A program made the position numbers and the translations under genes. From Nannocystis pusilla (GTDB lineage: Bacteria; Myxococcota_A; Polyangia; Nannocystales; Nannocystaceae), in NCBI RefSeq assembly GCF_049060185.1, contig NZ_JBMEQO010000002.1: a DNA stretch of 64,000 nt. One strand, 5' to 3'. The notes beneath the pieces are model-generated. The model did no database searches and was not told where the DNA came from. It was given only the letters and a program-made list of their open reading frames with translations. This document shows positions 12,247 to 34,253 of the stretch, in pieces; positions within the stretch are counted from its first letter, which is position 1; every line of letters starts with the position of its first letter.

Positions 12247-12291
12247 GACTATCGAGGGCATCCGGAGACAACACCGAGGCCGGCGACCGCC

Positions 12292-13434: not shown

Positions 13435-13484
13435 GACGAATCGTTCGAGGCGGAGACTGGCAGTAGTAGAGCCCCAGCCTGTTC

Positions 13485-14184: not shown

Positions 14185-14278
14185 CTCGCGCTGGCGCCCA
14201 ATACGTGCATCGTCCTTTTCGACCGATCGAGTACCCATGCGATATCTGGAAAATCTCAGGAGCGCCCACGTGAAGACA

Positions 14279-14953: not shown

Positions 14954-15042
14954 CCGGAGCGACGGCCCGAAGCCGTGTGTGGACATTTCGACCTCCACCT
15001 TCGATCTGCCTCCTGCAGACTCGCATGCTTTGAAAGTGACGT

Positions 15043-15510
15043 ATGAAACACGCAGTTTCACGCGGGCTCGGCCTTGTCTTGCCATTCGCTCTGACGATCG
15101 CGTCCGGGCCTGGTTGCTTCCTCCCGCCGCCGATCGTGCGAGGACCGGACGGTCGGCCGATCTTTCGCGGTGAGTACCTGATTCACCCGCAAGCGGGCCC
15201 GTACTTCTGTTTCGGCGGAGTCACGCCGCTCGGGACAGAGACGTCCCGCTGCCAGGGGACCCTGGACACCTGCGCCGGCCTGCTCGACACCTGGCAAGAG
15301 GCCGGGCAGAGTCTGCTCAGCGCTTGCCACCCGACATCGAACATCTACTGCACCCAGGGCTTCAGTAACAACTGGATGTGCGCGGAGACCGTGGAGGCGT
15401 GCGAGGTCGAACGCGCGCGTCGCGTCCAGGAATACGCGAGCGGGCAGGATCTCGGGTACGCGACATGCACCGAGGTCGACGCGTCCAAAGTGTTCCCGCC
15501 GCCGGCCTAG
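15043..15510 (+). CDS. small Cys-rich secreted protein
   Basis: Signal peptide MKHAVSRGLGLVLPFALTIASGPGC; intact 155 aa. Confidence 0.45.
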   Translation: MKHAVSRGLGLVLPFALTIASGPGCFLPPPIVRGPDGRPIFRGEYLIHPQAGPYFCFGGVTPLGTETSRCQGTLDTCAGLLDTWQEAGQSLLSACHPTSNIYCTQGFSNNWMCAETVEACEVERARRVQEYASGQDLGYATCTEVDASKVFPPPA

Positions 15511-15672
15511 ACGCGCGCCGAGGCGGGCTCTCACGCAGTACGCTCACGATCGCCGCTCCCTCACCAGTCCCATCGGCCATCTCATCGGGAGCGCGACCAT
15601 CCGCGATCGCCGGCCGTGGCGCGCAGCCTCGCGCGCACCGACGCCGCCCCTGTCATGCAGTACCATCGCGCG

Positions 15673-16931
15673 ATGTCTCGCCTCGAAGCGCTCCTCCTGT
15701 GTGCCCCCTTGCTGGCAGCCTGCGGCGACAGCGGGCGGCCCCAGGACACCGCGAACGCCACCCTGACCACCAGCGGCCCCGGCCCGACCTCGACCGTCGA
15801 CCCCACCGAAGGCGCCGTCACCGACGGCACCACCACCGGCGAGCCGACCACCTCCACCACCTCGACCTCGGGCCTGCCCAAGCTCGACCTCGGCGCCCAG
15901 CCCGACCAGGGCGAGATGGCCACCACCGGCGAGTGTGCCGCTCAGATGTTGGAGCCGCAGGTCCAGTCGATCGGCGTCGACATCGTCGTCGTCGTCGACA
16001 CCTCCAACTCCATGCAGGCTGCGATCGCCGCCGTCGAGGCCAGCATCAACAACGACTTTGCCGCCATCCTCGGCGCCAGCAACGTCGATTACCGCGTCAT
16101 CGTCATGGGCGACTACCCGCCCGGCGAGCAGCTCGACATCTGCATCAGCGCCCCGCTCTCCGGCACCGACTGCAACCCGCCGCCCGCCGTCCCCGCGGTC
16201 ACCGAGCGCTACAAGCACTACGACGGCATCACCGGCTCGGGCGGCTTCCTCGCCAGCATCCTCGCCTGGTACACCGCCCCCGATCCGCACGGCCTCGCCC
16301 CCAACGGCTACCGCGACTTCCTGCGCGACGGCACGCGCAAGGTCATCCTCGCCATGACCGACGGCACCAGCGCCTCGAACACCGACGCCGACGGCGACGC
16401 CTTCGACGCCGCCCTGCTCGCCCTCGACCCGCCGCACTTCGGCACCCTGGCGCGCGCGACTACGTCTTCCACACCATCATCACCATGGGCGCCAACAACC
16501 CGCCCGACGCCCTGTGGTTGCCGGGCGACCCGCTGCAGGGCGAGGGCGACTCGATCCAGCGGGTCAGCGTCATCAGCGGTGGTTGGCGCTTCCCGCTGTC
16601 GCAGACCGACGCCTTCGACGTCCTCTTCCAGGAGATCGCCAAGGACGTCGTCATGACCACCCCGATCGCCTGCTCCTTCCCGATCCCCGAGCCGCCGATG
16701 GGCACCATCGATCCGAACACCATCGAGATCGACTACCAGGTCGGCGGCGTCCCGCCGGTCAAGGCGTTCCATCAGGTCGTCGACCTCGCCGCCTGCGAGG
16801 CCGACGCCTTCTACATCGAGAACGCCACGGTCATCCTCTGCCCCGACGCCTGCGCCCAGGTGCAGGCCGACCCGGCCGCCAAGCTCGACGTCCGCTACGG
16901 CTGCGACGTCGGCTTCGATCCCGCCGGTTGA
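15673..16931 (+). CDS. von Willebrand factor A (VWA)-domain lipoprotein; one apparent frameshift ~16440
   Basis: MSRLEALLLCAPLLAACGDSG lipobox; MIDAS DxSxS in DIVVVVDTSNSMQAAIAAV. Confidence 0.65.
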
Positions 16932-17044
16932 TCGGCCCGAGCTCGCCGTCCGCTACGGCTGCGGCGGCGGCTCCGACTCCGCCGGGTGATCGGCCCGAGC
17001 TCGCCGTCCGCTACGGCTGCGGCGGCGGCTCCGACTCCGCCGGC
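16931..17044. repeat. perfect tandem duplication 2 x 57 bp (GATCGGCCCGAGCTCGCCGTCCGCTACGGCTGCGGCGGCGGCTCCGACTCCGCCGGGT) echoing the 3' end of the VWA gene
   Basis: Units 16931-16987 and 16988-17044 are identical. Each encodes ...VRYGCGGGSDSAG*, similar to the gene terminus ...VRYGCDVGFDPAG*. Confidence 0.85.
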
Positions 17045-17999
17045 GGAGCCTCGCCCGGCCCTTCCGGCGCGCTCTCCGGCGCGTTCCCCGTCGCCATCCG
17101 GCGCCACACCGCCGGCAGCCCGATCTCGAGGAACACCGGGAAGCGATAGCCCTCGTAGCGGCGCTCGAGCGCCGCCCGGACCCGCAGCACCGCGGCGGGG
17201 TCCGGCGGCAGCGTCGGCTTCTCGGCCGCCACCAGCGACAGCACCGTCTGCAGGTACTCGCGCTGGTTCTCCACCAGCTCCGGCCCGCCCGAGCGGCCGC
17301 GGCCCGGATGCACGTGCTTCGGCTGCATCGCCTCGATCTCCGCCAGCCGCTGCAGCCACGCCTCCGGCTCGCCGATCTCGAGCCACGCGTGCGCCTTGTT
17401 GGCCACCAGGTCGCCGACGAACACGTGGTCCTCCCATTGAACCACCACGTGGGCCGGGCTGCAGCCCGGCCCGAGCACGTGCGCCTTCAGCTCGAGGCCG
17501 GCCAGCTTCAGCGTCGTCGTCGCCGCCCCGAAGCTGCGCGGCTGCGGCACCGCCGTCGGCCAGTCCGGCGCGTAGCGCTCCGCGAACGCCTCCGTGCGCT
17601 TCGCAAACACCTCGGGGATCCGCGCCAGCACCTGCTCGGCGGTCCACACCTCGATCCCGCGGGCCTGGAACGTCGCGGTGCCGTTGAACTTGTCGGGGTT
17701 CGCGTGCAGCACGATCGCCGCCACCACCTTCTTCGGGTCACGCGCTCGGCCGCCGCGATGACCTCGGCCGCGACCGACGGCAGGAACTGCACATCGATCA
17801 CCACCACCCCGTCCGGCCCTTCGATCCAGAAGCTCGACGTGTCGAACGACCAGCCCGACGAGATGTACTGCCCGATCCGCCGCTCGGACAGCGGCACCTC
17901 CACCCGGCCCGTCATCGGCGTCGACGAGTGGCTCACGCAGGCGAACCCCGAGGTGACGAGCGACGCGAGGGTGACGAGCTGAAGCGCGCGAGCGAACAT
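17008..17999 (-). CDS. secreted MBL-fold metallo-hydrolase; frameshift ~17740; C-terminal Pro/Glu-rich tail encoded by the tandem repeat
   Basis: Signal MFARALQLVTLASLVTSGFAC; metallo-beta-lactamase-like core continuing in a second frame (VAAIVLHANPDKFNG...). Confidence 0.55.
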
Positions 18000-18285
18000 C
18001 GGCTGCGAAGGCTAGTGCCCCCGCCGCGCCGTGTCCACCGCCGGCGCGCATGTCTCGAAGGACATCCGCACGCGCCGAACCCTCCCACGGCCCCGCCCAG
18101 GCCCCATCTCCGGCCGGCGCGCGCAGCACCGGGCGCAGTCACGCCCCATCCCCGGCGGCGCCCGTCGCCAGCGCGCCGCGTGGCTCTCGGGCCGACCGGG
18201 GCGAGCCCCGCCCGGGCATCCCCGGGCGCCGCGCGGAGCGTCGCGTGGTATGAGATCGTAGGCCGGCCCAGCCCGCGGGAGTCTT

Positions 18286-19245
18286 ATGCGACATGTCTTC
18301 AAGTACAGCTTCACCGTCTCTGCCCTCGTCCTCGCCGCGTCCGCCTGCGGCGACTCCGGGGCCGTCCAAGGCAGCTCCGCCACCGACGCGACCACCATCA
18401 GCAGCCTGAGCGCCGGCACCACCGAGCCGGGCACCACCGAGCCGGGCACCACCGAGCCCGGCACCACCGAGCCGGGCACCGCGGCCACCACCGCCGAGCC
18501 CACCACCGCCGAGCCCACCACCGGCCCCGTCGATCCATCGACCACCACCACGACCACCGAGCCCGGCACTACCACCACCACCACCACGGAGACCGGCACC
18601 ACCACGACCACCGGCGAGCGGCCGCCGGAGTGCGTCTCCGTGCTCAAGGCCACCGTGCGCGACTTCAAGGAGAGCCACCCCGACTTCGAGGCCTACGGCG
18701 GCACCGTCGACGGCCTCGTCCAGGTGGACCTCGGGCCCGACAAGAAGCCGGTCTACGCCCACGCCGGCGGCACCTCGGTCACCACCGGCCCGGCGGAGTA
18801 CGCCCAGTGGTACAACGACGTCGCCGACGTCAATCAAGCGTTCGAGATCGAGATCATGTTGACCGAGACGATGCCCGGTCAATACACCTACCAGAACAAC
18901 GACTTCTTCCCGATCGACGATCAGGGCTGGGGCAACCAGGGCAACAACCACAACTTCCACTTCACCACCGAGATCCACACCGAGTTCACCTATTCGGGCG
19001 GCGAGGTGTTCACCTTCACCGGCGACGACGATCTGTGGCTGTTCATCAACGGCAAGCTCGCCATCGACCTCGGCGGCGTCCACGGCGCCCTCAGCGAGTC
19101 CATCGACCTCGACAGCAACGCCGGCTTCTTGGGCATCCAGCTGAACGGCACCTACTCGATGGACATCTTCCACGCCGAGCGCCACACCACCCAGTCGAAC
19201 TTCCGCATCGACACCAGCATCAACTGCTTCATCGTCCCCGGCTGA
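18286..19245 (+). CDS. fibro-slime domain (PA14-like) lipoprotein with TEPG/Thr-rich linker
   Basis: Lipobox VLAASAC; (TEPGT)x4 repeats; characteristic FTGDDDLWLFINGKLAIDLGGVHG fibro-slime motif; intact. Confidence 0.75.
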   Translation: MRHVFKYSFTVSALVLAASACGDSGAVQGSSATDATTISSLSAGTTEPGTTEPGTTEPGTTEPGTAATTAEPTTAEPTTGPVDPSTTTTTTEPGTTTTTTTETGTTTTTGERPPECVSVLKATVRDFKESHPDFEAYGGTVDGLVQVDLGPDKKPVYAHAGGTSVTTGPAEYAQWYNDVADVNQAFEIEIMLTETMPGQYTYQNNDFFPIDDQGWGNQGNNHNFHFTTEIHTEFTYSGGEVFTFTGDDDLWLFINGKLAIDLGGVHGALSESIDLDSNAGFLGIQLNGTYSMDIFHAERHTTQSNFRIDTSINCFIVPG

Positions 19246-19259
19246 CCTGGAGCCCCGAC

Positions 19260-20301
19260 GCGCGTCGATGAGGACGCAGCCTCGCCTCGCCATTCGCGGC
19301 GATCACTGCGGGCGAAATCGGCGCTCACCGTCCTCGGCGCGTCGAGCTCGGCGGTGATCGTCGCCATGTGCCATCCGGCCGTGAGGCGGCCGAAGTAGCT
19401 CGGCATCTCTTCGAGGTCGTATGGAGCCGTCGTGCAGAATGCGGCATGACCTCCATCCTGCCGTCGAGCGTCAGCCAGCCGGGAGTCAGCGCGTCGAGCC
19501 GCAGCGTCGTCGTGCGTTGCATCCGGCTCGCCGAGATCCGCAGCGTGGAGGGATCGGAGCACTCGACCACGATCTCCTCGACGTACGCGGCGCCGTCCCA
19601 CGCCATCGTCGGCTCCGGGCAGCCGAACACCGACGGGTAGGCGTCGTACGCGGTGTCGAGGTACAGCGCCTCGAGCTCGTCGAAGCTCAGCCGTACACCC
19701 GCTCGAACTGGCCGCGGAGCTGGGCCTCGGAGTCGTCGGGCTCCGACATTCGGTACAGCCGGGTCAGCGGCTCGGCGCCGAACTCCTCATACAGGAAGCG
19801 CACGAAGTGACCGGCCGTCGCGTAGGAATACGCGTCGTCGACGCCCTGGGTCTCGAGCGGATCGAAGTCGAGCCAGTCCGACGGCATCATCGAGCCCGGC
19901 GCGAGCATCGGCGCGCTGAAGGCGACCGCCAGCCCTTCCGCCAGGAACGGCTTGGCCTGGCCCATCGAGGCCGCCACGGCGTGCACGAGCTCGTGTTCGA
20001 ACAACGACCAGGGCCCGTAGATGGTAGTCCCGTCGGCGCAGGCCGAAGCGCTGTCGGGACAGAACCCCGAGATGTCCTCGACCCAGTTGTAGCGGATCTT
20101 GCCCCTGGCCTCGATCCCGAGGAGCTCCTCGATCTCTGCCAGGCGCGCCTCCATGAACGCCACGTTGCCGCCGCACAGCTCACCCTCGAATTCCGGCGCG
20201 ATCTCGAACCGATCGGTGACGAAGGCGACCTCCGGCGGCTGCCGGCAGGCTGCCACGCCGAGCATCGTCACCACGCACGCCGCCGCGCTTCTCCGTGTCA
20301 T
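19260..20301 (-). CDS. lipoprotein with HExxH motif (putative zinc metallopeptidase); apparent frameshifts ~19687 and ~19430; 3' end uncertain
   Basis: MTRRSAAACVVTMLGVAAC lipobox; LFEHELVHAVAASMGQ; coding continues in shifted frames (SFDELEALYLDTAYDAYPSVFGCPEPT...). Confidence 0.4.
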
Positions 20302-20504
20302 CGTCGACGATCGTACCACCCGGCCCCGGCCGCGCCAGCCGACGCGCGTCGAGCGTCGTCTTCCCCAGATCTGCGCTGCGCTGCACGGACAAGCCCTTGC
20401 GTGTGGACGGTCTTTGCGTCGCTGCTGATCGACGAGAGACTCGCCGCGGCGCGGCCGAGTCGGTCGCGCCCGTTGCTGACCTGAAGCCCGCGGACCCGAG
20501 CCCG

Positions 20505-21440
20505 CTACGACCGCCGCACCCCTTCGCGCCGCTTCGCCGGGCCGACGCGCTTCGCGGTCGCGCGCATCAGCTCGGCCATGAATTCGAGGAACACGCGCAC
20601 CTTCGGGAGCTGCGCCTTCTCCTTTGCGAAGAGGGCGGCGACCGGCACCTCTTGCTGGAGCTCGGGTCGCAGGACCGCCTCGAACGTGCCGCGGGCGAGG
20701 TCCTCGCGCACCACGTGCTCGAAGACTTGCACGATGCCCTGGCCCGCGCGCGCCGCTTCGAGGATCGCCCCGATGCCGTTCGAGTAGAACCGCCCCGTCG
20801 GCACGAGCGCGACATCGCCGTCTTCGTGCCGGAGCTTCCACGGGAGGGGCATCGAGCCGACGAGGAAGCCCAGAGTGTCATGCCCTCGGAGGTCCTCGAC
20901 GGAGGCCGGCCGACCGCGGCGCGCGAAGTAATCCGGCGTACCGACGATCACCAGCGGCATCGTCCCCAGGTGCTTGTGCATGAGCTCGCTCTCGCGCAGC
21001 TTCGCCATTCGCAACACCACGTCGATCCCCTCGGCGATGGGATCGACCAGATGATCGCGGAGGCTGAGATCGACGGAGAGCTCGGGGTACGCCGCGAGGA
21101 AGCGCCCGATCGCCGGGCCGAGCACGTAACTCCCGAACATCGAAGGCGCGTCGACGCGGAGCCTCCCGCGGGGGCGCTGCGGGTGCTGGCGACGGCCCTG
21201 TCGGCCTCCTCGAGCTCGCGGAGGATGCGAGTACAGCGCTCGTAGTAGACGGCCCCGTCCGCGGTGAGCCCGACGCTGCGGGTCGTCCGCTCCAGCAGTC
21301 GAACGCCGAGGCGCCCCTCGAGCCGCGCGATCGCACGGCTGACGCCGGACGCGGTGAGGCCCATCGCCCGGGCCGCGAGCGTGAAGCTCCGCTTCTCGAC
21401 CACGCGGACGAACACGCCGATCTCGCTGAGCGGATCCATC
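20505..21440 (-). CDS. LysR-family transcriptional regulator; one apparent frameshift ~21160
   Basis: N-terminal HTH MDPLSEIGVFVRVVEKRSFTLAARAMGLTASGVSRAIARLEGRLGVRLLERTTRSV; LysR substrate-binding domain in second frame. Confidence 0.8.
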   Translation of the reverse strand, partial: DGSAQRDRRVRPRGREAELHARGPGDGPHRVRRQPCDRAARGAPRRSTAGADDPQRRAHRGRGRLLRALYSHPPRARGGRQGRRQHPQRPRGRLRVDAPSMFGSYVLGPAIGRFLAAYPELSVDLSLRDHLVDPIAEGIDVVLRMAKLRESELMHKHLGTMPLVIVGTPDYFARRGRPASVEDLRGHDTLGFLVGSMPLPWKLRHEDGDVALVPTGRFYSNGIGAILEAARAGQGIVQVFEHVVREDLARGTFEAVLRPELQQEVPVAALFAKEKAQLPKVRVFLEFMAELMRATAKRVGPAKRREGVRRS

Positions 21441-21577
21441 GCGCGAGTCTCCGCGATTGTTGACCGGCAAGCAACAGAGTCGTGCGCCCATCGGCCTTGG
21501 TCGTCTCGTCGCAGCGCCCTAGAACTCGACGCATGAACGACAAGGTCCCTGGAAACGACTCCGCCCATCCGCATCGA

Positions 21578-22302
21578 ATGACCACCCGCGTCGCGCTCGT
21601 CACCGGTGCGAACAAGGGCATCGGCCTCGAGATCGCCCGCCAGCTCGCCCAAGCCGGCGTCTTCGTCATCCTCGGCGCGCGCGACCGCGACCGGGCGAGC
21701 GCAGCCGTCGCCGATCTGGCGCGCCAGGGATTGGCAGCACAGGCGGTCCGGATCGACCTCGACGACGAGGCGAGCATCGCCACCGCTGCCGCATCGATCA
21801 CCGCCGAGCACGGTCGGCTCGACATCCTCGTCAACAACGCCGGCATCGTCGACGCCGAGGACGGCCCGCCCGGCGCCGCATCCCTCGCGGCCGTCCGCAA
21901 GATCATGAACACGAACTTCGTCGGCACCCTGGCGGTGACGCAGGCGATGCTCCCGCTGCTGCGAAAGTCGCCCGCCGCGCGAATCGTCAATCTGTCCAGC
22001 TCCTCGGTTCGCTCACCCTCAACGGAGATCCGACGTCGCCCTATTATTCGGCGCGATTGATCGGCTACAACGCCTCCAAGGCGGGCGCTCAACATGCTCA
22101 CCGTCCAGCTCGGCGAAGAGCTGCGCGATACGCCGATCGTCGTCACCTCGGTGAGCCCGGGATACGTCAAGACCGACTTGACCGGGCACAATGGTTTCCT
22201 GACCCCGAGCAAGGCGCGAGGTTGCCGGTCGAGCACGCGCTGCGCGGCGCCGACGCCGTCTCCGGCCGGTTCGTGGAAGCGAGCGGCGAGACTCCCTGGT
22301 GA
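21578..22302 (+). CDS. SDR-family (carbonyl reductase-like) oxidoreductase, divergent from the LysR gene; about 3 apparent frameshifts
   Basis: TGANKGIGLEIARQL Rossmann motif, NNAG, catalytic YNASKAG found in a second frame, C-terminal SPGYVKTDL in a third. Confidence 0.7.
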
Positions 22303-22392
22303 GCGCCGACTTTCGGCCGCGACAGCCGTCGCCACGCCGAGCCGTGCGCGCCCGGGCCTGCGCGCCCCTGTCGCCGCCGCGGTGAAACCGGC

Positions 22393-22416
22393 GACATGTC
22401 TCCCAGGACATGTCCC
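22393..22416. repeat. GACATGTCTCCCA-GGACATGTCC palindromic repeat pair
   Basis: Perfect 10-bp palindrome GGACATGTCC preceded by a half copy, in the intergenic region after the SDR gene. Confidence 0.6.
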
Positions 22417-22596
22417 GATTCCGCGCCGCGAGGCCGCGCGCGCGGCCTCGCGAGTGGTCGCGCGGCCCACACCGCCGCGACGTCACCCGTGCAGCCGCAT
22501 GCACCACGTGGATCGACTCGTCGCCGCGTCGGGGCCGCCGGCCTCTGCGATCCCCGACGCTCGCCCGTCGGCGATCCGCTCGCGTACGATGCCGCC

Positions 22597-24265
22597 ATGA
22601 GACTTTGTGTATGGGCGAGCAGGAGTGCATTCGCGGCAGCGATCGCCGCGGCGGGGTGTGGGGACAGCGGCGTCGCGGCCAGCGAGACGGACGCGACCGG
22701 CACGGAGACGCAGGCGACGACCAGCGGTGACAGCACGAGCGAACCGGCGCCGACGACCGGCGCGCCGACCACGAGCGGCACCTCGACGGTCGGCACCGAC
22801 AGCGCGACCGCGGCGACCGACAGCGACACCACGACCACCACGACCACCACGACCACCACCGACGGCGACACCACGACCACCACGACGACCGACAGCGACG
22901 CGACCACCACCGATTCCACCAGCACCGGCCCCGCCCCTTCTGCGGCGACGGCGAGGTCGACGACGGCGAGGCCTGCGACGACGGTCCGGGCAACGCCGAC
23001 GACGCCAACTGCACCCTCGCCTGCGCCGAGGCCGTGTGCGGCGACGGCCTCGTCCACGCGGGCGTCGAGGCCTGCGACGACGCCAACGACGTCGACGACG
23101 ACGCCTGCAGCAACACCTGTGCCCTCGCCACCTGCGGCGACGGAGCGGTCCAGAACGGCGAGGCCTGCGACGACGCCAACACCGACGACACTGACGCCTG
23201 CCTCTCCACCTGCCTCGCCGCCAGCTGCGGCGACGGCCACGTCCAGGCCGGCGTCGAGCCATGCGACGACGGCAACCCCGACGACGCCGACGCCTGCCTC
23301 TCACCTGCCAGGCCGCCACCTGCGGCGACGGCCACGTCCAGGACGGCGTCGAGCAGTGCGACGACGGCAACGCCGACAACAGCGACGCTTGCCTCGCCAC
23401 CTGCCAGACCGCCACTTGCGGCGACGGCGAGGTGCAGGCCGGCGTCGAGGAGTGCGACGACGCCGACGCCGACGACAGCGACGCCTGCCTCGCCGATTGC
23501 AAGGCCGCCACCTGCGGCGACGGCGTCATCCACGTCGGCGTCGAGCAATGCGACGACGGCAACGACATCGACGGCGACGGCTGCACCAGCGCCTGCACCG
23601 TCCCCACGACCTGCGAGGACCTGCAAGCCGCCGTGCCGATGCTCCCGAGCGGCGTCTACGTCGTCGACCCCGACGGCGTCGGCGGTCAGGCCGGTTACCC
23701 CGTCTTCTGCGACATGGTCACCGCCGGCGGCGGCTGGACATTGCTCGAGCGCAGCCCGCTCGGCGCCCAGACCATCGGCAAGGCGCTCTACAACGACCTC
23801 CCCATCAACGCCGCCGACCCTGCCAACGCCCGCCATCGCCTGTCCAAGGCGCAGATGACCGTCCTGCGCGACCTCTCCACCGACATGCGCATCGACTGCC
23901 GCGGCGACGACTACTTGCTGACCGCTGCCGGCAACCTGTTCAACGGTCAAGGTGGACCGAACAGCTGCTTCGATTGGTCGCAGGTGCTCTACAAGGAGGC
24001 CCGCCTCAAGGGCAACTTCGTGCAGAACAAGACCATCTGCACCTGGCACGTCGGCACCTCCGAGGGCTGCGCCGGCGCCTGGCACATCGACGAGGTGGCC
24101 CAGAACCAGTACGGCTGCGGCCTCGTCAACTACCCGTGGAAGGGCGCCGCGGTCGTCAGCCCCTCCGCCGACACCTTCGCCACCGACCCCAACACCCTCG
24201 ACGCGGTCAACCCGATACACGACTGTCACAAGCCCGGCGCCGCCCGCTGGCTGATGGTCCGCTGA
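22597..24265 (+). CDS. lipoprotein with Thr-rich linker, about 7 Myxococcus cysteine-rich repeats (CGDGxV..GExCDDGN..DxC) and a C-terminal fibrinogen-related domain; about 2 apparent frameshifts
   Basis: [25 protein letters not shown] lipobox; repeats [37 protein letters not shown] and so on; FReD hallmark [18 protein letters not shown]. Confidence 0.7.
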
Positions 24266-24278
24266 TCGCCGGGTATCC

Positions 24279-24305
24279 TGCCGAACGCCGTACGCCGCGG
24301 CGTTC
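24279..24305 (+). terminator. stem-loop CCGAACGCCG-N7-CGGCGTTCGG after the FReD lipoprotein gene
   Basis: Perfect 10-bp GC-rich stem 14 nt after the stop; no U-tract (usual in high-GC genomes). Confidence 0.45.
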
Positions 24306-25118
24306 GGCCGCTCCCTCAATGGCCCTCGTGCCGGGCCCACGCCTGATCGCATCGACGACGCATTCACCGCCGGCCGCGCCGCCCATTGCGAATGGGGCCT
24401 CGCGGTCGAGGTCGGCGCTCCTCGCCGATTTCAACGATACCTGTCGCCCTCGCCCTCCGGGTCGGTCCGCCCGCACTCGCGGCGCCGCAGCCGACCGGCG
24501 ACCACGCGCCCGGCCCGCGAGCCTATCGGCGGGGCGCCCGTCGCGTCCGCCTCGCGAATGCGCACCCGGCCCTCCGGCCGAGTCGCGGCGCCGCGCCCGG
24601 CTCGCCCTCGCCCGCGTCTCGTCGGACCTGGCCGCGACCTTAATAAAGGAGAGCGAGACCGCCGCGGGAACAGCGTACTGACCGCCCACGCGCCCTGGCG
24701 CGGCATTGCGCGTCGCCGTCGCATCGCACGCGCGGTGCATCGCCGCGCGAACACAATGGCCATTGCCTGCCCGCGGGCCGCGTGCGGCCCGCGCGGCGCG
24801 GGAATCGGCACACACCGCCGTCACGCCTTTCCGAACCCTCCGCGTCGTCGCCAACCATGTGCATTTCGCCTGCGCTGCGAATCAGCCGCAGATCGGAATC
24901 GCCACTTCCCGCGCTCGTCGGGCCCGCCGCACACCCCGGGTTGCATCGCAGCACCGGGTCGCGAATAGAACACGCATCATTTCCCGCATGGCAGTGCGGG
25001 ACTCGCTCTGAATCGCGCGACCCGGCGCAGCGCGGTTTCCTGGCCCTCTGCGCGCTGGGTCGCGCATTCTTCAGTCACGAATGCATCGTTTAATTAATCT
25101 TCGTTCCCCGAATTTGTC

Positions 25119-25148
25119 TTGACGCCTCGCGATGACGGAGCGTAACCT
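25119..25148 (+). promoter_or_regulatory. putative promoter of the encapsulin operon (TTGACG-N18-TAACCT) with an AT-rich upstream element; ~100 nt leader; RBS AAGGA 5 nt before ATG
   Basis: Only AT-rich patch (TTTAATTAATCTTCG...TTGACG) in a 1 kb non-coding, GC-rich leader. Confidence 0.35.
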
Positions 25149-25251
25149 CGCGCCCGCGAGCTCGAACCGCGAAGGGGCCGAATTTCGCCGACACGGCCCC
25201 TGTCGGGCAGAATCGGAAACGGCAGCAGAGCTGTCGGTGAAAAGGATAGTC

Positions 25252-26649
25252 ATGTCGATCGCAGGAAAGCCGGGAAATGATCAGCAGACCAGCCTCTCGA
25301 CGGCTGCAGCGCGGCAGCTCGCCACGACGACGAAGTCCCCGCCGCAGATGCAGGGAATCTCGTCCCGCTGGCTGCTCAAATTGTTGCCCTGGGTGCACGT
25401 CAACGGCGTCTTCCGCCTCAATCGTCGCCTGAGCTACGCCGTCGGCGACGGCCGCGTCACCTTCTACAACACTGGCGCCAAGATCCAGGTCGTGCCGCTG
25501 GAGCTGACCGAGCTCCCGCTGTTCCGCGGCTACGAGGACCTCGAGGTGCTCAACGTCCTCGCCGGCCGCTTCGTGCAGAAGGAGTTCAAGGCGGGCGACA
25601 TCCTGACGCAGAAGGGCAACGAGGCCAACGAGATGGTCCTCATCGCCCACGGCAAGGTCAACAAGATCGGCACCGGCAAGTACGGCGACGAGAGCGTCCT
25701 CGAGACCCTGGCCGACGGTGACCATTACTCGTACCAGGCGATCCTCGAGTCCCAGGACTACTGGGACTTCACCGCCAAGGCAGTGACCGCCGGCAGCGTC
25801 CTGACGCTGTCGCAGGCGTCCTTCGAGGAGCTGGTCGCCCAGCACCCGTCGCTGCGCAAGCACGTCGACGAGTTCAAGGCGCGCTCGCAGAAGAAGCAGG
25901 ACAACAGCGGCCAGGCCGCGATCGAGGTGGCCTCCGGCCACTCGGGCGAGCCCGTGCTGCCCGGCACCTTCGTCGACTACGAGACCTCGCCGCGGGAGTT
26001 CGAGCTCAGCGTCGCCCAGACCGTCCTGCAGGTCCACACGCGCGTCGCCGACCTGTTCAACGACCCGATGAATCAGACGCAGGAGCAGCTGCGCCTGACC
26101 GTCGAGGCGCTGAAGGAGCGCCAGGAGCACGAGCTCATCAACAACCACGAGTTCGGCCTGCTGCACAACGCCGACCTCAAGCAGCGGATCCACACCCGCA
26201 GCGGCCCGCCGACGCCGGACGACATGGACAACCTGCTGGCGCTGGTGTGGAAGGAGCCGGCCTTCTTCCTCGCCCACCCGCGGACCATCGCGGCGTTCGG
26301 CCACGAGTGCAACCGCGCGGGCATCTACCCGACGCCGATCGACCTGGGCGGCCATCACGTCCCGTCGTGGCGCGGCGTGCCGATCTTCCCGTGCAACAAG
26401 ATCCCGATCTCCGACACGCGCACCACCTCGATCCTGCTGATGCGCGTCGGCGAGAAGAACCAGGGCGTCATCGGCCTGCACCACAAGGGCATCCCCGACG
26501 AGATCGAGCCGAGCCTGTCGGTGCGCTTCATGGGCATCAACGAGAAGGCGGTCATCTCGTACCTGGTCAGCCTCTACTACTCGGCCGCCGTCCAGATCCC
26601 GGACGCGCTCGGCATCCTCGAGAGCGTCGAGATCGGCCGCGCCGACTGA
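25252..26649 (+). CDS. Family 2B encapsulin shell protein (HK97-fold with inserted cNMP-binding domain), paralogue 1
   Basis: N-terminal disordered segment, CAP-like cNMP-binding domain ([53 protein letters not shown]...), and a C-terminal shell fold. About 465 aa, intact. Proteins of this kind were historically annotated as Crp/Fnr 'cnb' in 2-MIB operons. Confidence 0.75.
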
Positions 26650-26730
26650 CGCCCTCGTCGCACCCATCGGCGCTCCGGTCCTCGCGGCCCGGGGCGCCTC
26701 CGTCCGTGATGCCAGCCTGGAGACGTTGAC

Positions 26731-28133
26731 ATGTCGATTTTCGAGAAGTCCGGCCGTGATGGCGACGGACAGCAGCCGATGAGCCTCGGGACCCGGGCCG
26801 CGCGGCAGCTGGCGACGACCACCAAGACCCCGCCGCAGAACCAGGGGCGCACGCCTCGCTGGCTGCTCCGCTCGCTGCCCTGGGTCGACGTCACCGGTGG
26901 CACGTTCCGCGTCAATCGCCGCATGAACGTCGCGGTCGGGGACGGGCGGATCGAATTACCAACATCGGCGCCAAGGCTCAGGTGATCCCGGCCGAGCTCA
27001 CCGAGCTGCCGCTCCTGCGCGGATTCGCCGACGACGAGGTGCTCTCGCACCTCGCCAGCCGGTTCGTGCAGTCCGAGTTCAAGCCGGGCCAGCTCATCGC
27101 CGAGCGCGGCAAGCCGGCCGACCACGTGTACCTGCTGGTCCACGGCAAGGCCAACAAGCTCGGCCGGGGCCCCTACGGCGAGGAGGCCATGCTCGAGGTG
27201 ATCGCCGACGGCGCCCACTTCGGCGATCAGGCGCTCGTGCAGGACGACGACGCCTGGGACTACAGCGTTAAGGCGGTCACGCCGTGCATCGTCCTCGCGC
27301 TGCCGCAGACCGAGTTCGAGGCGCTGATCGGCCGCTCGGCCGCCCTGCGCGCCCACGTCGAGCGCTACAAGGAGCTGCTGAAGACCCCGCAGGACAAGCA
27401 CGGCCAGGCGGCCATCCGCTTGACCGCGGGCCACCACGGCGAGGTCACCTTGCCGGGCACCTTCGTCGATTACGAGGCCTCGCCGCGCGAGTACGAGTTG
27501 AGCCTCGCGCAGACCATCTTGCAGCTCCACTCGCGGGTGTCCGATCTGTTCAACGATCCGATGGACCAGCTCGAGGAGCAGCTGCGCCTGACGATCGACG
27601 CCCTGCGCGAGCGGCAGGAGCACGAGCTCGTCAACAACCGCGACTTCGGCCTGCTTCACAACGCCGACTACAAGCAGCGGATCAACACCCGCAGCGGCCC
27701 GCCGACGCCCGACGACATGGACGAGCTGCTGTGCCGGCGCCGCAAGACCAAGTTCATCCTGGCCCACCCGCGGACGATCGCCGCCTTCCGCCGCGAGTGC
27801 ACCCGCCGCCGGCTCGATCCGCCGAACGTCGAATACGAGGGGTCCATCGTCGCCGGCTGGCGCGGCGTGCCGATCCTCCCGTGCGACAAGATTCCGATCT
27901 CCGAGACGCAGACCAGCTCGATCCTCGCCATGCGCGTCGGCCAGGAGGCCCAGGGCGTCATCGGCCTGTATCGCAGCGGCCTCCCCGACGAGCGCGAACC
28001 CGGCCTGTCCGTCCGCAGGATGGGCACCAACGAGAAGGCGGTCGCTTCGTTCCTCGTCAGCACGTACTACTCCGCAGCGGTCCTGATCCCGGACGCGCTC
28101 GGGATCCTGGAAAACATCGAGATCGGGCGCTGA
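26731..28133 (+). CDS. Family 2B encapsulin shell protein, paralogue 2 (~60% identical to paralogue 1); single apparent 1-nt indel near 26960
   Basis: Same architecture ([53 protein letters not shown]...); GGAG RBS 5 nt upstream of ATG 26731. Confidence 0.7.
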
Positions 28134-28201
28134 GCGCCACCGCCGAGGCAGGCGCCACCTTGGGGCGCCTCGTCACAGTGCAACGAAAGAGAACAGACGA
28201 T

Positions 28202-28769
28202 CATGAACACGCCCACCACGGCCAATAGCCTCCTGCGCAGCGAATACCAGAAGTCGGTCGCCAATTACTAGAACACCAACCAGAACGACCCGGTCAATCT
28301 GCTGCTCGGCCACGTCGGCGGCTAATACCACCACCACTACGGGATCGGCGCCGTCAATTGGTCGGTGCTGGAGCAGCCCGAGGCCACGCGCGACGACGCC
28401 ATCATCCGCGAGCTGCACCGCCTCGAGCACGCGCAGGCGGAGCACCTGCTCAAGAAGCTCGGCCCGATCAAGCCCGAGAGCCGCCTTCTCGACGCCGGCT
28501 CCGGCCGCGGCGGCACCAGCCTCATGGCCCACGAGCGCTTCAAGTGCCAGGTCAAGGCCGATCGCGGCTGCTCGATCGACGAGGCGACCGAGGTCACCGT
28601 CCAGCTGCACAACGACCTCGTCCGCGACTTCGAGGCCAGCCACCGCGAGCTGCAGGCCGTCCCCAGCGTCGAGCTGCAGCGGTTCCTGCGCGCCCTGCGG
28701 GCGTGGATGGGCGGCGCGTTCGAGTGGCACGACAGCAACCCGCGCTACAAGACCGGCCGCAAGACGTAG
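28202..28769 (+). pseudogene. decayed remnant of geranyl diphosphate 2-C-methyltransferase (2-methylisoborneol pathway): two in-frame stops (TAG 28268, TAA 28322) and C-terminal truncation
   Basis: SEYQKSVANY*NTNQNDPVNLLLGHVGG*YHHHYGIGAV...IIRELHRLEHAQAEHLL...LLDAGSGRGGTSLMAHERF matches the GPPMT N-terminal half (YWNNEARPVNLRLGDVDGLYHHHYGIG...LESAQAEF...DAGCGRGGSMVMAHRRF). The ORF ends at ...WHDSNPRY, about 100 aa short of full length. Confidence 0.6.
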
Positions 28770-28945
28770 GGCCGCCGCGCGTGCGCTGAATCGCCGCGCC
28801 GCGCGAGTGAGGAACAAGGGCGCCGCGCCCGCGCGCGTGACCCCTCGGCCTTCACGCCGCGCGGCCCGTCGATCATGACATTCACGGCTGGGCTCGCTGG
28901 TGGCGCTGCTTGCATGTGCAGCCATCTCGGCCATCTTCAGGCGTG

Positions 28946-31900
28946 ACCGGCGATCCGCTCGGATTCCTCCACCCGGCCGCCCGCGCGTGGTTCGAGGCCT
29001 GCTTCGACGCGCCGACATCGGCGCAGGTCGCGGGCTGGCCGGCGATCGAGGCCGGCGAATCGACGCTGCTCCTGGCGCCCACGGGCTCGGGCAAGACTCT
29101 GGCGGCGTTCCTCGGCGCCATCAACCGCGTCATGTTCGCGCCGGTCCCGCCACCTGCGGAGCGCTGCCGCGTGGTCTACGTCTCGCCGATCAAGGCCCTC
29201 GGGGTCGACGTCGAGCAGAACCTGCGCTCGCCGCTGGCCGGCATCGCCGCCACCGCGGACCGGCTCGGCATGACCGTGCACACCCCGACGGTGGCGATCC
29301 GCAGCGGCGACACCCGCAAAGGCGCGGGCGCACATGCAGCGCCACCCGCCCGACATTCTCATCACCACGCCCGAATCGCTGTACATGCTGCTCACCAGCG
29401 AATCGCGGGCGATGCTGCGATCGGTCGACACCGTGATCGTCGACGAGATCCACAGCCTCGTCGCCAGCAAGCGCGGCAGCCACCTCGCCCTCTCGCTCGA
29501 GCGCCTCGAGTGGCTCCGCGCCGGCGCGCGACCGCTGCAGCGGATCGGCCTGTCCGCGACCCAGCGCCCGCTCACCGAGGTCGCGCGCTTCCTCGGCGGC
29601 TCGCTGGTCGACGGCGACGCGATCGCGCCGCGGCCGGTGACGATCGTCGACGCCGGCCAGGTCAAGCAGCTCGACCTGCGCATCGAGATGCCCGTCGAGG
29701 AGCCGACCGCGAGCATCGAGGACGTCCCGCCGGCCGCCAACGAGGGCCCACCGCGATCTCGGGCCTCCCGCGCTCCAACCTCACCGCCCTGCACCCGCGC
29801 CTCGTCGAGCTGATCCGCGCTCATCGCTCGACCATGCTGTTCGTCAATAGCCGCCGCCTCGCCGAGCGGCTCGCTGCGGCGCTCAACGAGGTCGCGGGCG
29901 AGCCGCTGGCGCTCGCGCACCACGGCTCGATGGCCAAGGACGTGCGCGCCGGGGTCGAGGAGCAGCTCAAGCGCGGCACCTTGCCGGCGATCGTCGCCAC
30001 CTCCTCGCTCGAGCTCGGCATCGACATGGGCGCGGTCGACCTCGTGATCCAGCTCGCCTCGCCGCCGTCGATCGCCGCCGGCATGCAGCGCGTCGGCCGG
30101 GCCAACCACCACGTCGGCGGGCGCTCGCGCGGCGTCATCATCCCCAAGTTCCGCGGCGACCTGCTGCCGTGCGCCGCCGCGGCGCGGGCCATGCTCGCCG
30201 GCGAGGTCGAGTCGTCGCGTTATCCTCGCAACCCGCTCGACATCCTCGCCCAGCAGGTCGTCGCCGCGGTGGCGATGGACGACTGGGCCGCCGAGGCGCT
30301 GTACGACAAGCTGCGCGCCGCCGCCCGTACGCCGAGCTGCCGCGCGACGCCTTCGAGGGCGTGCTCGACATGCTCAGCGGCCGCTACCCGAGCGAGGACT
30401 TCGCCGACCTGCGCCCGCGCGTCAACTACGACCGCGTCACCGGCCAGTTGTCGGCGCGCCACGGCGCGCGTCGGGTGGCGATCGGCAACGCCGGCAGCAT
30501 CCCCGACCGCGGCCTGTTCGGCGTCTTCCTCGCCGGCAGCGGCGAGGGCGGCCGCCGCGTCGGCGAGCTCGACGAGGAGATGGTGTTCGAGTCGCGGATC
30601 GGCGACGTGTTCGTGCTCGGCGCCTCGTCGTGGCGCATCGAAGAGATCACCCACGACCGCGTGCTCGTCTCGCCGGCCCCGGGCGAGCCCGGCAAGCTGC
30701 CGTTCTGGCGCGGCGACGGCCCCGGCCGCCCGCTCGAGTTCGGCCAGGCGATCGGCGCGCTGATCCGCGAGATCGGAGCGCTGTCCGACGCCGACGCCGA
30801 GGCCCGCCTCGTCCAGCAGCACTGCCTCGATCCGGCCGCCGCGCACAGCCTCCTGCAGTACGTGCGCGAGGAGCAGGAGGCCGCCAAGACCTTGCCCACC
30901 GATCGCACGATCGTCGTCGAGCGCTTCCGCGACGAGATCGGCGACTGGCGCGTCTGCATCCTCTCGCCGTTCGGCGCCGCAGTGCACGCCCCGTGGGCCA
31001 TGGCGGTGCGCAGCGCCCTGCTCGAGCGCTACGCCGCCGAGCTCGACGTCGTCTGGTCCGACGACGGCATCGTGTTCCGCCTGCCCGAGGCCGAGCGCGC
31101 GCCCGACCCGACGCAATTCTTCCCGCGCGCCGACGAGCTCGAGGATCGCGTGGTCGCGCGCCTCGCCGAGACCTCGCTGTTCGCCACCCGCTTCCGCGAG
31201 AACGCCGGGCGGGCGCTGCTGCTGGTCAAGCGCCGGCCCGGCCAGCGCACCCCGCTGTGGGCCATGCGGCGCAAGTCGGCCGACCTGCTGGCGGCCGCCT
31301 CGCGCTTCCGCGACTTCCCGGTCGTGCTCGAGACCTACCGCGAGTGCCTGAAGGACGTGTTCGACCTGCCCGGCTGCGTCGACCTGCTGCGCCGCGTCGA
31401 GCAGCGCGCGATCAAGGTCGTCGACGTCGAGACGCGCAGCCCGAGCCCGTTCGCCGCGGCCCTGCTGTTCTCCTACGTCGGCAACTTCATGTACGAGGGC
31501 GACGCCCCGCTGGCCGAGCGGCGCGCCCAGGCCCTGACGATCGACCACGCCCGCCTCAAGGCGCTGCTCGGCGAGGCCGCCCTGCGCGACCTGCTCGACG
31601 CCGACGCGATCGCCGAGCTCGAGGCGACCCTGCAGCGGCGCGCTCGCAAGCTCCACCACCCCGACGAGATCCACGACCTGCTGCTCGCGCTCGGCGATCA
31701 GGACCGCGACGACCTCGTCGCCCGCGCCGGCGTCGGCGAGGACGACATCGATCGCTGGCTGGCCGAGCTCACCCACACCCGCCGGATCGTCAAGGTCAAG
31801 CTCGGCGGTCGCTGGCGCTACATCGCCGCCGAGGACGCCGGCCGCTACCGCGACGCCCTCGGCGTCGTCTCGCCGCCGGGCCTGCCGGCGGTGTTCCTCG

Positions 31901-33410
31901 AGTCCGTGGAAGATCCGCTGGCCGACCTCGTCGCCCGCCACACGCGCACGCACGGCCCGTTCCGCGCCGAGTGGCTGGCCCAGCGCTTCGCCGTCGGCAC
32001 CGCGCTCGTCATCGGCGCCCTGCGTCGGCTCGCCGCCCGCGGCAAGGTCGTCGAGGGCGAGTTCATCCCCGCGGCGCCGGCCTCGAGTGGTGCGACGACG
32101 AGGTCCTGCGCCGGCTCAAGCGCATGTCGCTGGCGCGCCTGCGCGAGGAGGTCGAGCCGGTCGAGCAGGCGGTGCTCGGCCGCTTCTCGCTCGCGTGGCA
32201 GGGCATCGGCGGCGAGCGCGAGGGCCCCGAGGCGGTGCTGCAGGCGATCGAGCAATTGCGCGAGTCGCGATCCCGGCCTCGGTGCTCGAGGGCGAGGTCC
32301 TGCCGGCGCGGGTCGCCAACTATCGCGCCACAGATCTCGACGTCCTGTGCGGCGCCGGCGACGTCGTCTGGCGCGGTGTCCGGCCGCTCGGCCAGGCCGA
32401 CGGCTACGTCGCGCTCTACCTCGCCGACGACGCCGCCTGGCTCACCCCCGACCCCACCCCGGCCGCGGGCGAGCTCGCGGCGCGGGTGCGCGAGGCCTTG
32501 CAGGCCCGCGGCGCCTCGTTCTTCGCCGAGCTCGTCACCCAGGTGCGCGCCCCGGTCGACGAGCTGCTCGAGGCCCTGTGGGACCTCGTGTGGGCCGGCG
32601 AGGTCACCAACGACACCCTCACCTGCCTGCGCAGTCGCCTCGCCGGCGCCGATCGGGGCCCGCGTCCGCAGCTGCGCTTCGGCGTCGACGGCCGCGGCCG
32701 GCGCAGCGGCCCCGGGCAGCGAAGGTCGCTGGTCGCTCGTCACCCCGCGCCCCGTCGACGAGACCGAGCGCCGGGCCGCCCGCGCCCGTCAGTTGCTCGC
32801 GCGCCACGGCGTGCTCACCCGCGAGGCAGTCGCCGCCGAGGATCACGAGGGCGGCTTCGCGGCCGTCTATCCTGTCCTCAAGGCCATGGAGGAGGCCGGC
32901 CGGGTGCGCCGCGGCTACTTCGTCGCCGGCCTCGGCGCGACCCAGTTCGCCCTGCCCGGCGCCGAGGATCGCCTGCGCGACGTCCGGGACATCGACGAGG
33001 ACGCGCCCTTCACCGTCCTGCTCGCCGCCACCGATCCCGCCAACCCCTACGGCGCCGCGCTCCCGTGGCCGGATGTCCCCGAGGCCAGGTTCGAACGGGC
33101 CGCCGGCGCGCGCGTGGTCCTGCGCGACGGCCGGCTCATCGCCTTCCTGAGCCGCGGCGCCCGCACCCTCGTCACCAACCTCCCCGACGCCGAGCCGGAG
33201 CGCGGGCGCGCCACCGCGGCGCTCGCCGAGGCCCTGTCGCTGCTGCCCGAGGTCACCGGCCAGCGCTACGTCCTGCTCGAGCAGATCGACAATCAACCGG
33301 CCCCCGCCTGGCCGCAGGTCGCAGCATTGACCGCCGCCGGCTTCCGCCCCACCCACGACGGCCTGATCCTGCGCCGCGACGAGCCGCGCCTCGGCGCGAG
33401 GAGGCGCTGA
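28946..33410 (+). CDS. lhr: Lhr-family ATP-dependent DNA helicase (large helicase-related, ~1490 aa); about 6 apparent frameshifts
   Basis: N-term ...[44 protein letters not shown], motif [18 protein letters not shown], helicase C domain, long Lhr C-terminal extension; pieces alternate among three frames. Confidence 0.8.
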
Positions 33411-33413
33411 TCC

Positions 33414-34253
33414 ATGCCCGAGGGCGATACCCTCCACAAAGTCGCCGCCCGCCTGCAGGTGATGGTCGGCCAGACCGTCACCCGGTTCGAATCGGTGATC
33501 CCCGAGCTCGCCCTCGTCGGCCGCACGATCACCACAGTCGAGGCCCGCGGCAAGAATCTCCTGATCTGGTTCGACGGCACCCACGCGCTCTACACCCATT
33601 TGCGCATGGAGGGCAGCTGGCACCTCTATCAGCCGAACAGCCCGTGGCGTAAACCCGCCACCGCCGCGCGCGCGGTGATCGCCACCGAATCGTGGCTCGC
33701 GGTCTGCTTCAACGCCCCGACCGTCGAGTGGCTCAGCGCCTGGGAGCTCGAGCACCACCCGGTCCTCTCCGCCCTCGGCCCCGACCTGCTCGGCCCCGAC
33801 GCATCGGACCAGCCCATCGCCGAGGCCCTGCAGCGCCTGCGCGCCGACCCGCGGCGCCCGCTCGGCGAGGCCATCCTCGATCAGCGCATCGTCGCCGGCC
33901 TCGGCAACGTCTACAAGAGCGAGCTGCTCTTCATGGAGCGGCTCGACCCGTTCAAGCCCGTCGGCGACTACGACGATCCGACGCTCCTGCGCTTGCTCGA
34001 GGCCGGCCGCAAGTGGCTGCGGCGCAACCTCGTCGGCGCCGGCCCGCGCAAGACCCGGTGGGACGTCGGCCGCGCCAACACCTGGGTCTACAACCGCTCG
34101 GGCGAGCTGTGCCCGCGCTGCAACACCCCGATCGCCATGCGCCGCCAGGGCACCCTCGGCCGCACCACCTATTATTGCCCCCGCTGCCAGCAAGCGGGCG
34201 CCAGCGCCGAGCCCCCGCGCGGCCGCGTCCTCGTGCGCGGCCCGGCCCGGTGA
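33414..34253 (+). CDS. nei: Fpg/Nei-family DNA glycosylase (endonuclease VIII-like), directly downstream of lhr
   Basis: N-terminal MPEGDTLHK (catalytic Pro2/Glu3), H2TH region, C-terminal zinc finger CPRCNTP...CPRCQ; intact. Confidence 0.85.
   Translation: MPEGDTLHKVAARLQVMVGQTVTRFESVIPELALVGRTITTVEARGKNLLIWFDGTHALYTHLRMEGSWHLYQPNSPWRKPATAARAVIATESWLAVCFNAPTVEWLSAWELEHHPVLSALGPDLLGPDASDQPIAEALQRLRADPRRPLGEAILDQRIVAGLGNVYKSELLFMERLDPFKPVGDYDDPTLLRLLEAGRKWLRRNLVGAGPRKTRWDVGRANTWVYNRSGELCPRCNTPIAMRRQGTLGRTTYYCPRCQQAGASAEPPRGRVLVRGPAR

Follow-up and report, generated by a model that had tools for sequence, protein, structure and literature searches.

The 64 kb window of high-GC DNA analysed here, from contig NZ_JBMEQO010000002.1 of Nannocystis pusilla, contains two consecutive genes, enc1 and enc2, whose sequences identify them as the Enc1- and Enc2-type shell genes of a Family 2B encapsulin. 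They are followed on the same strand by the remains of two genes for synthesis of the musty odorant 2-methylisoborneol (2-MIB) and by lhr, which encodes an Lhr-type helicase; the window refers throughout to the whole 64 kb stretch. The closest relatives in the genome collection were Nannocystis sp. RBIL2 (L001), N. pusilla Na p29 (L003) and N. punicea FL3 (L002, a complete genome), and blastn identities to the window were 94-96% for the first two and approximately 90% for N. punicea. Approximately 15.5 kb of the window was alignable to these relatives, and a change is termed private if it occurred in the window only within the four-genome alignment of the window and the three relatives.

The enc1 gene (25252-26649, + strand) is an intact open reading frame (ORF) of 465 amino acids whose product consists of an N-terminal arm, a cNMP-fold insertion at approximately residues 110-198 and an HK97/SrpI-like domain at residues 210-463. 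The Pfam models for the SrpI-like domain (PF19307) and for cNMP_binding (PF00027, residues 110-198) matched with 451.6 and 50.1 bits, and the NCBIfam model NF041163 (encap_f2b, family 2B encapsulin nanocompartment shell protein) with 749.9 bits; the cut-off is 400 bits for this model and for the two other NCBIfam models, NF041943 and NF041167, applied below. The enc2 gene (26731-28133, + strand, 1403 nt) begins 81 nt after enc1 on the same strand, a tandem two-component arrangement, and its product (467 amino acids after one base is restored) is 62% identical to that of enc1. PF19307 matched enc2 with 440.1 bits, PF00027 was located at residues 32-118 of the enc2 fragment, and the frame-corrected protein scored 743.4 bits on NF041163, with profile positions 1-450 of 450 covered by both shell proteins.

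Comparisons to solved structures gave full-length matches of both window proteins to Family 2B shells (E=1e-170 to 1e-189) and matches of both to the Family 2A shells 6X8M and 8T6R (E=1e-87 to 1e-95). Residues 3-462 of Enc1 aligned with 9BJE (E=1.2e-189), 9BHU matched Enc1 with E=5.6e-185, and the best solved match of Enc2 was 9BIX (E=2.7e-184). The cryo-electron microscopy (cryo-EM) structure 9BJE is Sl-Enc1 and 9BIX is Sl-Enc2 of the Streptomyces lydicus two-component shell, for which a diagnostic motif 1 has been described that reads TVWK (xVWK) in Enc1 and RRRK in Enc2 (PMC11071501). The 9BJE alignment shows TVWK, and the window proteins carry the motif as LVWK in Enc1 (ALVWKEP in the alignment) and RRRK in Enc2 (CRRRKTK). 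Two-component systems are defined by two Family 2B shell genes in tandem within 10 kb, as is found in the window. The preliminary description, made from the DNA before this analysis, had proposed two paralogous HK97-fold shell genes of Family 2B with a cNMP insert, and the PF19307, PF00027, NF041163 and 9BJE/9BIX matches bear this out. Its further statement that Family 2B shells usually come as two paralogues does not agree with the published figure, in which two-component operons account for 21% of Family 2B systems; in Proteobacteria these occur mainly with terpene cyclases, and a category without obvious cargo is included (PMC11071501). The full-length matches to cryo-EM shells suggest that the window proteins would assemble into a T=1 icosahedral shell enclosing cargo.

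A plain CRP-type regulator was considered as an alternative identity for the two proteins and was rejected on the basis of the SrpI-like shell domain and of the matches to NF041163 and to shell structures. No DNA-binding helix-turn-helix domain was found in either protein by domain searches, and the CRP and FtrB models aligned with the cNMP part only, at 18-28 bits against cut-offs above 200. Such proteins had been said in the preliminary description to have a history of annotation as Crp/Fnr-like 'cnb' genes in a 2-MIB context, and this identification was correct: according to the operon description in PMC12159092, the cyanobacterial 2-MIB operon cnbA-mtf-mtc-cnbB contains two cNMP-binding Cnb paralogues together with mtf (the methyltransferase acting on geranyl diphosphate, GPP) and mtc (the cyclase). 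The cyanobacterial cnbA and cnbB products are the same proteins as Family 2B shells under an older name. In the same description the cnb genes flank intact enzyme genes, whereas in Nannocystis the shell genes lie in tandem upstream.

An Rfam search of the shell genes returned two matches to RF02735 (Sernc350, a Saccharopolyspora antisense sRNA), at 25290-25778 and 26765-27271 on the - strand, with 132.7 and 96.3 bits relative to a gathering score of 50. Both are on the strand opposite the 5' third of enc1 or enc2, and what this RNA family detects is probably the conserved coding sequence of Family 2B encapsulins, read in antisense.

Directly downstream of enc2 is a chimera of two biosynthetic genes. 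The first part (28203-28553, + strand) is a pseudogene fragment comprising codons 1-117 of a GPP 2-C-methyltransferase (GPPMT) in which the S-adenosylmethionine-binding motif I, LLDAGSGRG, is kept. The second part (28554-28769, + strand) comprises the final 72 codons and stop codon of a 2-methylisoborneol synthase (MIBS), in frame with the first, so that the translation of 28203-28772 in a single frame joins GPPMT residues 1-117 directly to the last 72 residues of MIBS. With tblastn, N. punicea GPPMT residues 1-124 matched at 87% identity and the MIBS C-terminus, residues 310-381, at 90%. Structures of GPP methyltransferases (4F84 and 3VC1) matched remnant residues 12-119 with E=5e-30 and 1e-27, and those of 2-MIB synthases (3V1V and 3V1X) matched residues 129-180. 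No full-length GPPMT was found at the locus: the GPPMT model NF041943 reached 157.6 bits, below its cut-off, over profile positions 1-110 of 272, and the fragment contains two in-frame stops, TAG at 28269-28271 (from TGG) and TAA at 28323-28325 (from TAC), both private substitutions. The model NF041167 (family 2 encapsulin cargo protein terpene cyclase) also scored below its cut-off, with 81.7 bits over positions 300-366 of 366.

The preliminary description had noted a broken GPPMT downstream of the shells, which was confirmed with the corrections that the fragment starts at 28203 rather than 28365 and that 28554-28769 is the C-terminus of MIBS. Its claim that the 2-MIB synthase is absent did not hold, as residues 310-381 remain fused in frame to the GPPMT fragment; the methyltransferase remnant is a methyltransferase/cyclase chimera, in which the cyclase is truncated and not wholly absent. 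No terpene cyclase retaining the two Mg-binding motifs (DDxxxD and NDxxSxxxD/E) was found at the locus, both motifs lying in the missing part. Beyond the remnant, tblastn searches of the 64 kb window with MIBS, GPPMT and geosmin synthase (GeoA) found no further cyclase, GPPMT or GeoA, and six-frame translation of the window gave no credible ORF bearing GPxGxGT.

The origin of the chimera was evident from the syntenic locus of RBIL2, N. pusilla Na p29 and N. punicea, in which the order is Enc1-Enc2-GPPMT-MIBS-lhr. This arrangement is intact in N. punicea and N. pusilla Na p29 and nearly intact, with small lesions, in RBIL2. The N. punicea proteins are a GPPMT of 288 amino acids (498.8 bits on NF041943) and a MIBS of 383 amino acids (465.8 bits on NF041167). 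The window aligns to the three relatives up to 28553 and again from 28548, skipping 1516 bp of RBIL2, 1548 bp of N. punicea and 1540 bp of N. pusilla Na p29. Both edges of the missing segment of approximately 1.54 kb end in CAGGTC, a 6-bp direct repeat of which a single copy remains at the junction (28548-28553, + strand), where the blastn matches abut with a 6-bp overlap; the repeat at both edges reads as the signature of a microhomology-mediated deletion. The deletion is private to the window and took away GPPMT from codon 118 to codon 288, the spacer and the first 309 codons of MIBS, which include most of the methyltransferase fold, the MIBS loading peptide and both metal-binding motifs. 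Intact orthologous MIBS carries GPTGLGTSAARL at residues 19-30, DDYYAD at 139 and NDLYSVAKD at 289, and the GPxGLGT loading motif is present in MIBS of all three relatives. No exact match to the 30-nt deletion junction was found in metagenome contigs, nor any to the Enc1 protein in the assembly collection.

Two small lesions were also observed in RBIL2. The GPPMT gene of this strain lacks 25 bp (codons 205-213) at 13562-13563 of its locus that are present in L002, L003 and L004, which shifts the frame; 2-MIB synthesis may have been inactivated independently in this strain, whose two shell genes are intact. The MIBS gene of RBIL2 has a 1-bp gap at approximately 13996 that looks like a homopolymer error.

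The quality of the window assembly bears directly on how these lesions are to be read, and lhr served as the control. The preliminary description had given lhr as the next gene, and this was confirmed, with nei2 following it; this position of lhr anchors the synteny with the intact operons. The lhr gene (28943-33410, + strand) was recovered by tblastn as seven high-scoring segment pairs in alternating frames, 86-96% identical, and its orthologue scored 1320.6 bits on NF007284. Six frame breaks from deletions of 1-2 bp were present, of which five were private (29315, 29743, 30323, 32066 and 32711) and one was common to N. pusilla Na p29. The substitution pattern of the gene was that of its relatives, with 31 synonymous and 6 nonsynonymous private changes and no stops in the window compared to 35 and 7 or 30 and 6 in two relatives (37 private codon changes compared to 42 and 36), and its ratio of nonsynonymous to synonymous substitution rates (dN/dS) of 0.085-0.095 compares to 0.086 between relatives. 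The possibility that lhr is a genuine pseudogene was rejected since its dN/dS matched the value for the relatives and its lesions were all homopolymer contractions. Across the approximately 15.5 kb aligned, within 15541-34253, there were approximately 19 private deletions of 1-2 bp (approximately 1.2 per kb) and two private insertions of 1 bp. Almost all of the inspected deletions were contractions of runs (C4 to C3, C5 to C4, C6 to C4, G4 to G3 and T3 to T2), which is the pattern usual for an unpolished long-read assembly, and the window assembly appears to fit it. Nearby genes for a LysR protein and a short-chain dehydrogenase, among others, are likewise split between frames, and phase switches were frequent along the window in a plot of third-position GC content by frame. 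Biological conclusions should thus not be drawn from frameshifts of a single base in this assembly.

Given this background, the organism itself might carry an intact operon, the deletion and stops being errors of a low-quality long-read assembly, as the many indel errors and the frameshifts of related long-read assemblies in these same genes could suggest. The errors found elsewhere are homopolymer contractions of 1-2 bp, however, not kilobase deletions of unique sequence or substitutions, and the lhr gene of the window showed no excess of substitutions. The junction has a clean 6-bp microhomology typical of real deletions, and three independent lesions would have to fall within 0.6 kb, making this explanation very improbable. 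The preliminary description had named intact MIBS and GPPMT after error correction as a ground for refutation; correction of single-base errors cannot restore either gene, because what damaged them is a deletion of 1.5 kb together with substitutions. Since window substitutions are not in excess in lhr, the stops are not base-call noise, and we infer that the deletion and the two stops are real lesions.

The remnant and the neighbouring genes differed in nonsense codons, with two in 187 remnant codons compared to none in 2413 neighbouring codons (Fisher p=0.005), and no nonsense substitution was present in the 929 codons of the shell genes. The private changes of the window lineage in enc1 were three synonymous and no nonsynonymous (dN/dS 0.03-0.05) and in enc2 were nine synonymous and four nonsynonymous (dN/dS 0.19-0.25, equal to the 0.25 between two relatives). 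These values suggest no relaxation of constraint on the shell genes.

As assembled, 26731-28133 is not an open frame. The preliminary description overlooked a 1-bp deletion that splits enc2 at 26956 into ORFs of 26731-26985 and 26982-28133, as well as the poor indel quality of the assembly. The break is a private deletion at 26955-26957, where the window has TT and the closest relative TTT, and tblastn with the N. punicea enc2 orthologue switched from frame 1 to frame 3 at this position. One explanation would be that the frameshift is real and that the shell genes are becoming pseudogenes after the loss of 2-MIB synthesis, with the whole locus in decay. The dead biosynthetic genes next to enc2 would fit, as would the sequence of N. 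pusilla Na p29, which has a C between two Ts at this site such that the lesion is not a pure homopolymer change relative to that strain. Against this, like private deletions of 1-2 bp occur at approximately 1.2 per kb across the aligned region, including the five private breaks in the constrained lhr gene, the dN/dS of enc2 matches that found for pairs of relatives whose operons are intact, and the shell codons are free of nonsense substitutions. Decay of the whole locus was therefore judged quite unlikely. The enc2 frameshift is probably a homopolymer error of sequencing or assembly, as indicated by the background of private homopolymer contractions and by an lhr gene that is broken yet constrained.

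Taken together, we consider it likely that the window holds a strain-specific relic of the known 2-MIB encapsulin operon in which the shell genes are intact and the enzyme genes are destroyed. A relic 2-MIB operon had been one of two alternatives in the preliminary description, and it gained support from the three relatives with Enc1-Enc2-GPPMT-MIBS-lhr and from the private deletion and private nonsense codons of the window. The ancestral state was Enc1 and Enc2 followed by GPPMT and MIBS, as seen at the same site in the three sister genomes. By analogy to Streptomyces and Myxococcus, Enc1 and Enc2 would have co-assembled into a 60-subunit T=1 shell of approximately 29 nm with the cNMP-fold domains outside, and the synthase would have been packaged through its N-terminal GPTGLGTSAARL loading peptide binding an inner three-fold pocket. 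GPPMT would have made 2-methyl-GPP, which the encapsulated cyclase would have converted to 2-MIB. The deletion of approximately 1.54 kb between CAGGTC repeats and the two nonsense substitutions would have left a locus with neither 2-MIB synthesis nor a supply of cargo, from which shells are probably still made, empty of native cargo. The loss looks recent, as the remnant has barely drifted apart from its stops, and recency alone would suffice to account for intact shell genes.

Several observations count against this interpretation or limit it. Two nonsense codons among the six private codon changes of the GPPMT fragment exceed the expectation from random drift. The remnant has otherwise drifted little, with dN/dS of 0.11-0.15 in the GPPMT part and no private changes in the MIBS part, and for this reason the age of the loss is poorly constrained and selection on the shells is inseparable from recency. 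The deletion is known from the assembly alone, so that an artefact is formally possible, and the attribution of the closed enc2 frame to error rests on the background error rate. As a speculation on the excess of stops, there may have been selection against translating the GPPMT-MIBS fusion; alternatively, the stops may predate the deletion.

A second Family 2B locus in the relatives raises a different possibility for the intact shells. Enc1-Enc2-GeoA loci were identified in RBIL2, N. pusilla, N. punicea and N. bainbridge (L061, L068, L070 and L056, approximately 10000-15200), each with a GeoA of 782 amino acids downstream of the shells; the geosmin synthase scored 1156 bits on NF041168, and in RBIL2 this locus is located approximately 570 kb from the MIB-type locus on the same contig. 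The interdomain linker of GeoA carries GPTGLGTSGVRL, which is nearly the same as the Nannocystis MIBS peptide GPTGLGT[S/H]AARL and as GPN/TGLGTSAAR of Myxococcus xanthus, and this near identity makes cross-loading of the orphan shells chemically plausible by analogy. The shells may thus be retained by selection and re-used for another enzyme with the same loading peptide, likeliest GeoA of the second locus, or may co-assemble with the shells of that locus. Consistent with retention, enc1 had no private nonsynonymous change in 464 codons, while the 187 codons of the remnant had four that were nonsynonymous or nonsense (Fisher p=0.007), and RBIL2 has its own 25-bp GPPMT deletion with both shell genes intact. 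The GeoA locus has two shell genes of its own, however, with no evident need for more, and it would lie outside the window and is known from relatives only. Small numbers of changes, and the time that preceded the loss, confound the comparison of constraint; recent loss accounts equally well for intact shells, and cross-loading is not known from any pair of Family 2B systems. Re-use of the shells is unlikely on this evidence. A broader version, in which 2-MIB synthesis has been lost repeatedly in the clade (the window and RBIL2) while Enc1 and Enc2 are selected for loading, or co-assembling with, the geosmin synthase system via GPTGLGTS, is a speculation that we hold to be improbable; if true, it would be a natural example of shells serving more than one terpene pathway, in which as many as four shell paralogues mix.

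If the locus is a relic, as we favour, the strain should not make 2-MIB from it in spite of a gene cluster resembling one for 2-MIB, and automated annotation could mistake the in-frame chimera for a small methyltransferase. A naturally cargo-less two-component Family 2B shell, probably beside a geosmin-type system with the same peptide, would be convenient for the question of cargo specificity in vivo, a question that is equally open to ordinary genetics in model strains.

Encapsulins of this kind have been described experimentally (PMC11550324, PMC11071501 and bioRxiv 10.64898/2026.07.21.739788), and curated NCBI models exist for the shell, both types of cargo cyclase and GPPMT, so the novelty suggested in the preliminary description was overstated. 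The 2-MIB encapsulin of S. griseus (EshA/Sg Enc; 9BHU, 9BHV and 9BI0) forms a T=1 shell from 60 subunits, measures 29.4 nm and displays its cNMP-fold domains on the outside; the synthase is loaded into it via an N-terminal disordered domain with GPxGLGT (PMC11550324). This encapsulin shares with the Nannocystis system the Family 2B shell with external cNMP-fold domain, the cluster with GPPMT and 2-MIB synthase and the GPxGLGT peptide. In S. griseus there is a single shell gene, and the cargo-loading domain spans approximately 120 residues, while Nannocystis has two shell genes in the order shell-shell-methyltransferase-cyclase and a short N-terminal region before the cyclase, with the methyltransferase and cyclase destroyed in the window. 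The S. lydicus system has the same tandem Enc1 and Enc2 with motif 1, and the best matches of window Enc1 and Enc2 were its respective proteins, but its operon belongs to the xylulose-kinase type and lacks a confirmed cargo, while that of Nannocystis belongs to the terpene-cyclase type. In M. xanthus, the GPN/TGLGTSAAR peptide loads GeoA into the two-component MxEnc1/MxEnc2 shell (bioRxiv 10.64898/2026.07.21.739788); as in Nannocystis, this is a two-component Family 2B shell of a myxobacterium, and its terpene cyclase cargo is loaded by a short peptide. Most of the 80 closest loci in a survey were of this GeoA type, which has a two-domain geosmin synthase and no methyltransferase; in most myxobacteria GeoA is encoded upstream of the shell genes, and in Nannocystis it follows them. 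The window locus descends from the 2-MIB type and not from the GeoA type.

In this survey 78 loci had enough flanking sequence to be judged, and a terpene cyclase adjoined the two shell genes in 77 of them, by which a cargo-less state is the exception. GPPMT with MIBS was found in Nannocystaceae/Polyangia (L001-L005), a MIBS-like cyclase in one Nostoc locus and the two-domain geosmin synthase in the rest. By these comparisons the intact operon of Nannocystis belongs to a known class, of which it is an ordinary member, and the window holds a broken copy, an outlier through its deletion and not a new operon type. The exception among the judged loci was that of N. radixulma (L067, 6902-14100), a third kind of two-shell locus without GPPMT, MIBS or GeoA, in which an upstream ORF joins a weak terpene-cyclase-like region to an FAD-oxidase-like region and a cytochrome P450 is located downstream. 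This locus may represent an encapsulated oxidised-terpenoid pathway.

Upstream of enc1, approximately 990 nt from the stop of the preceding DUF4215/fibrinogen-like gene (24263-24265) to the enc1 start showed no coding periodicity, in agreement with the non-coding leader of approximately 1 kb reported in the preliminary description. Conservation in the four genomes was confined to the last 140 nt or so, with 72-92% of columns identical in all genomes at 25082-25276 compared to 42-65% farther upstream. The conserved block includes a candidate promoter (cTTGACG-18 nt-TAACCT, 25119-25150, + strand), with the AT-rich patch tttaattaatcttc (25090-25103) just upstream of it, and an AAAGGA ribosome-binding site that precedes the enc1 ATG. 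A sigma-70 consensus scan of the leader found no site. A riboswitch or other known RNA in the leader was rejected, as an Rfam search of the 1 kb gave no family at E up to 1. A longer Enc1 of 505 amino acids starting from the ATG at 25132 was ruled out by indels of the relatives at 25150-25240 that are not multiples of three and by conservation that begins at 25252.

Other genes around the operon included the one preceding the leader (22396-24262, + strand), whose product is rich in Thr and Pro and has cysteine-rich DUF4215 repeats together with a fibrinogen-C-like region. This gene contains internal DNA repeats, seen as self-similar blastn matches at 22883-23584, and two private frameshifts (deletions at 22937 and 23301). 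The region at approximately 19290-22500 comprises 3.2 kb or so in the window where RBIL2 and N. pusilla Na p29 have approximately 1 kb, a strain-specific indel near the operon, and encodes a putative lipoprotein (-), the frame-split LysR-type regulator (-) and the frame-split short-chain dehydrogenase (+) mentioned above. The gap in lhr common to the window and N. pusilla Na p29 is a 1-bp gap at 32259-32260 (caattgc-g compared to caattgcaag in RBIL2 and N. punicea), which is either a systematic platform error in that context or a shared variant.

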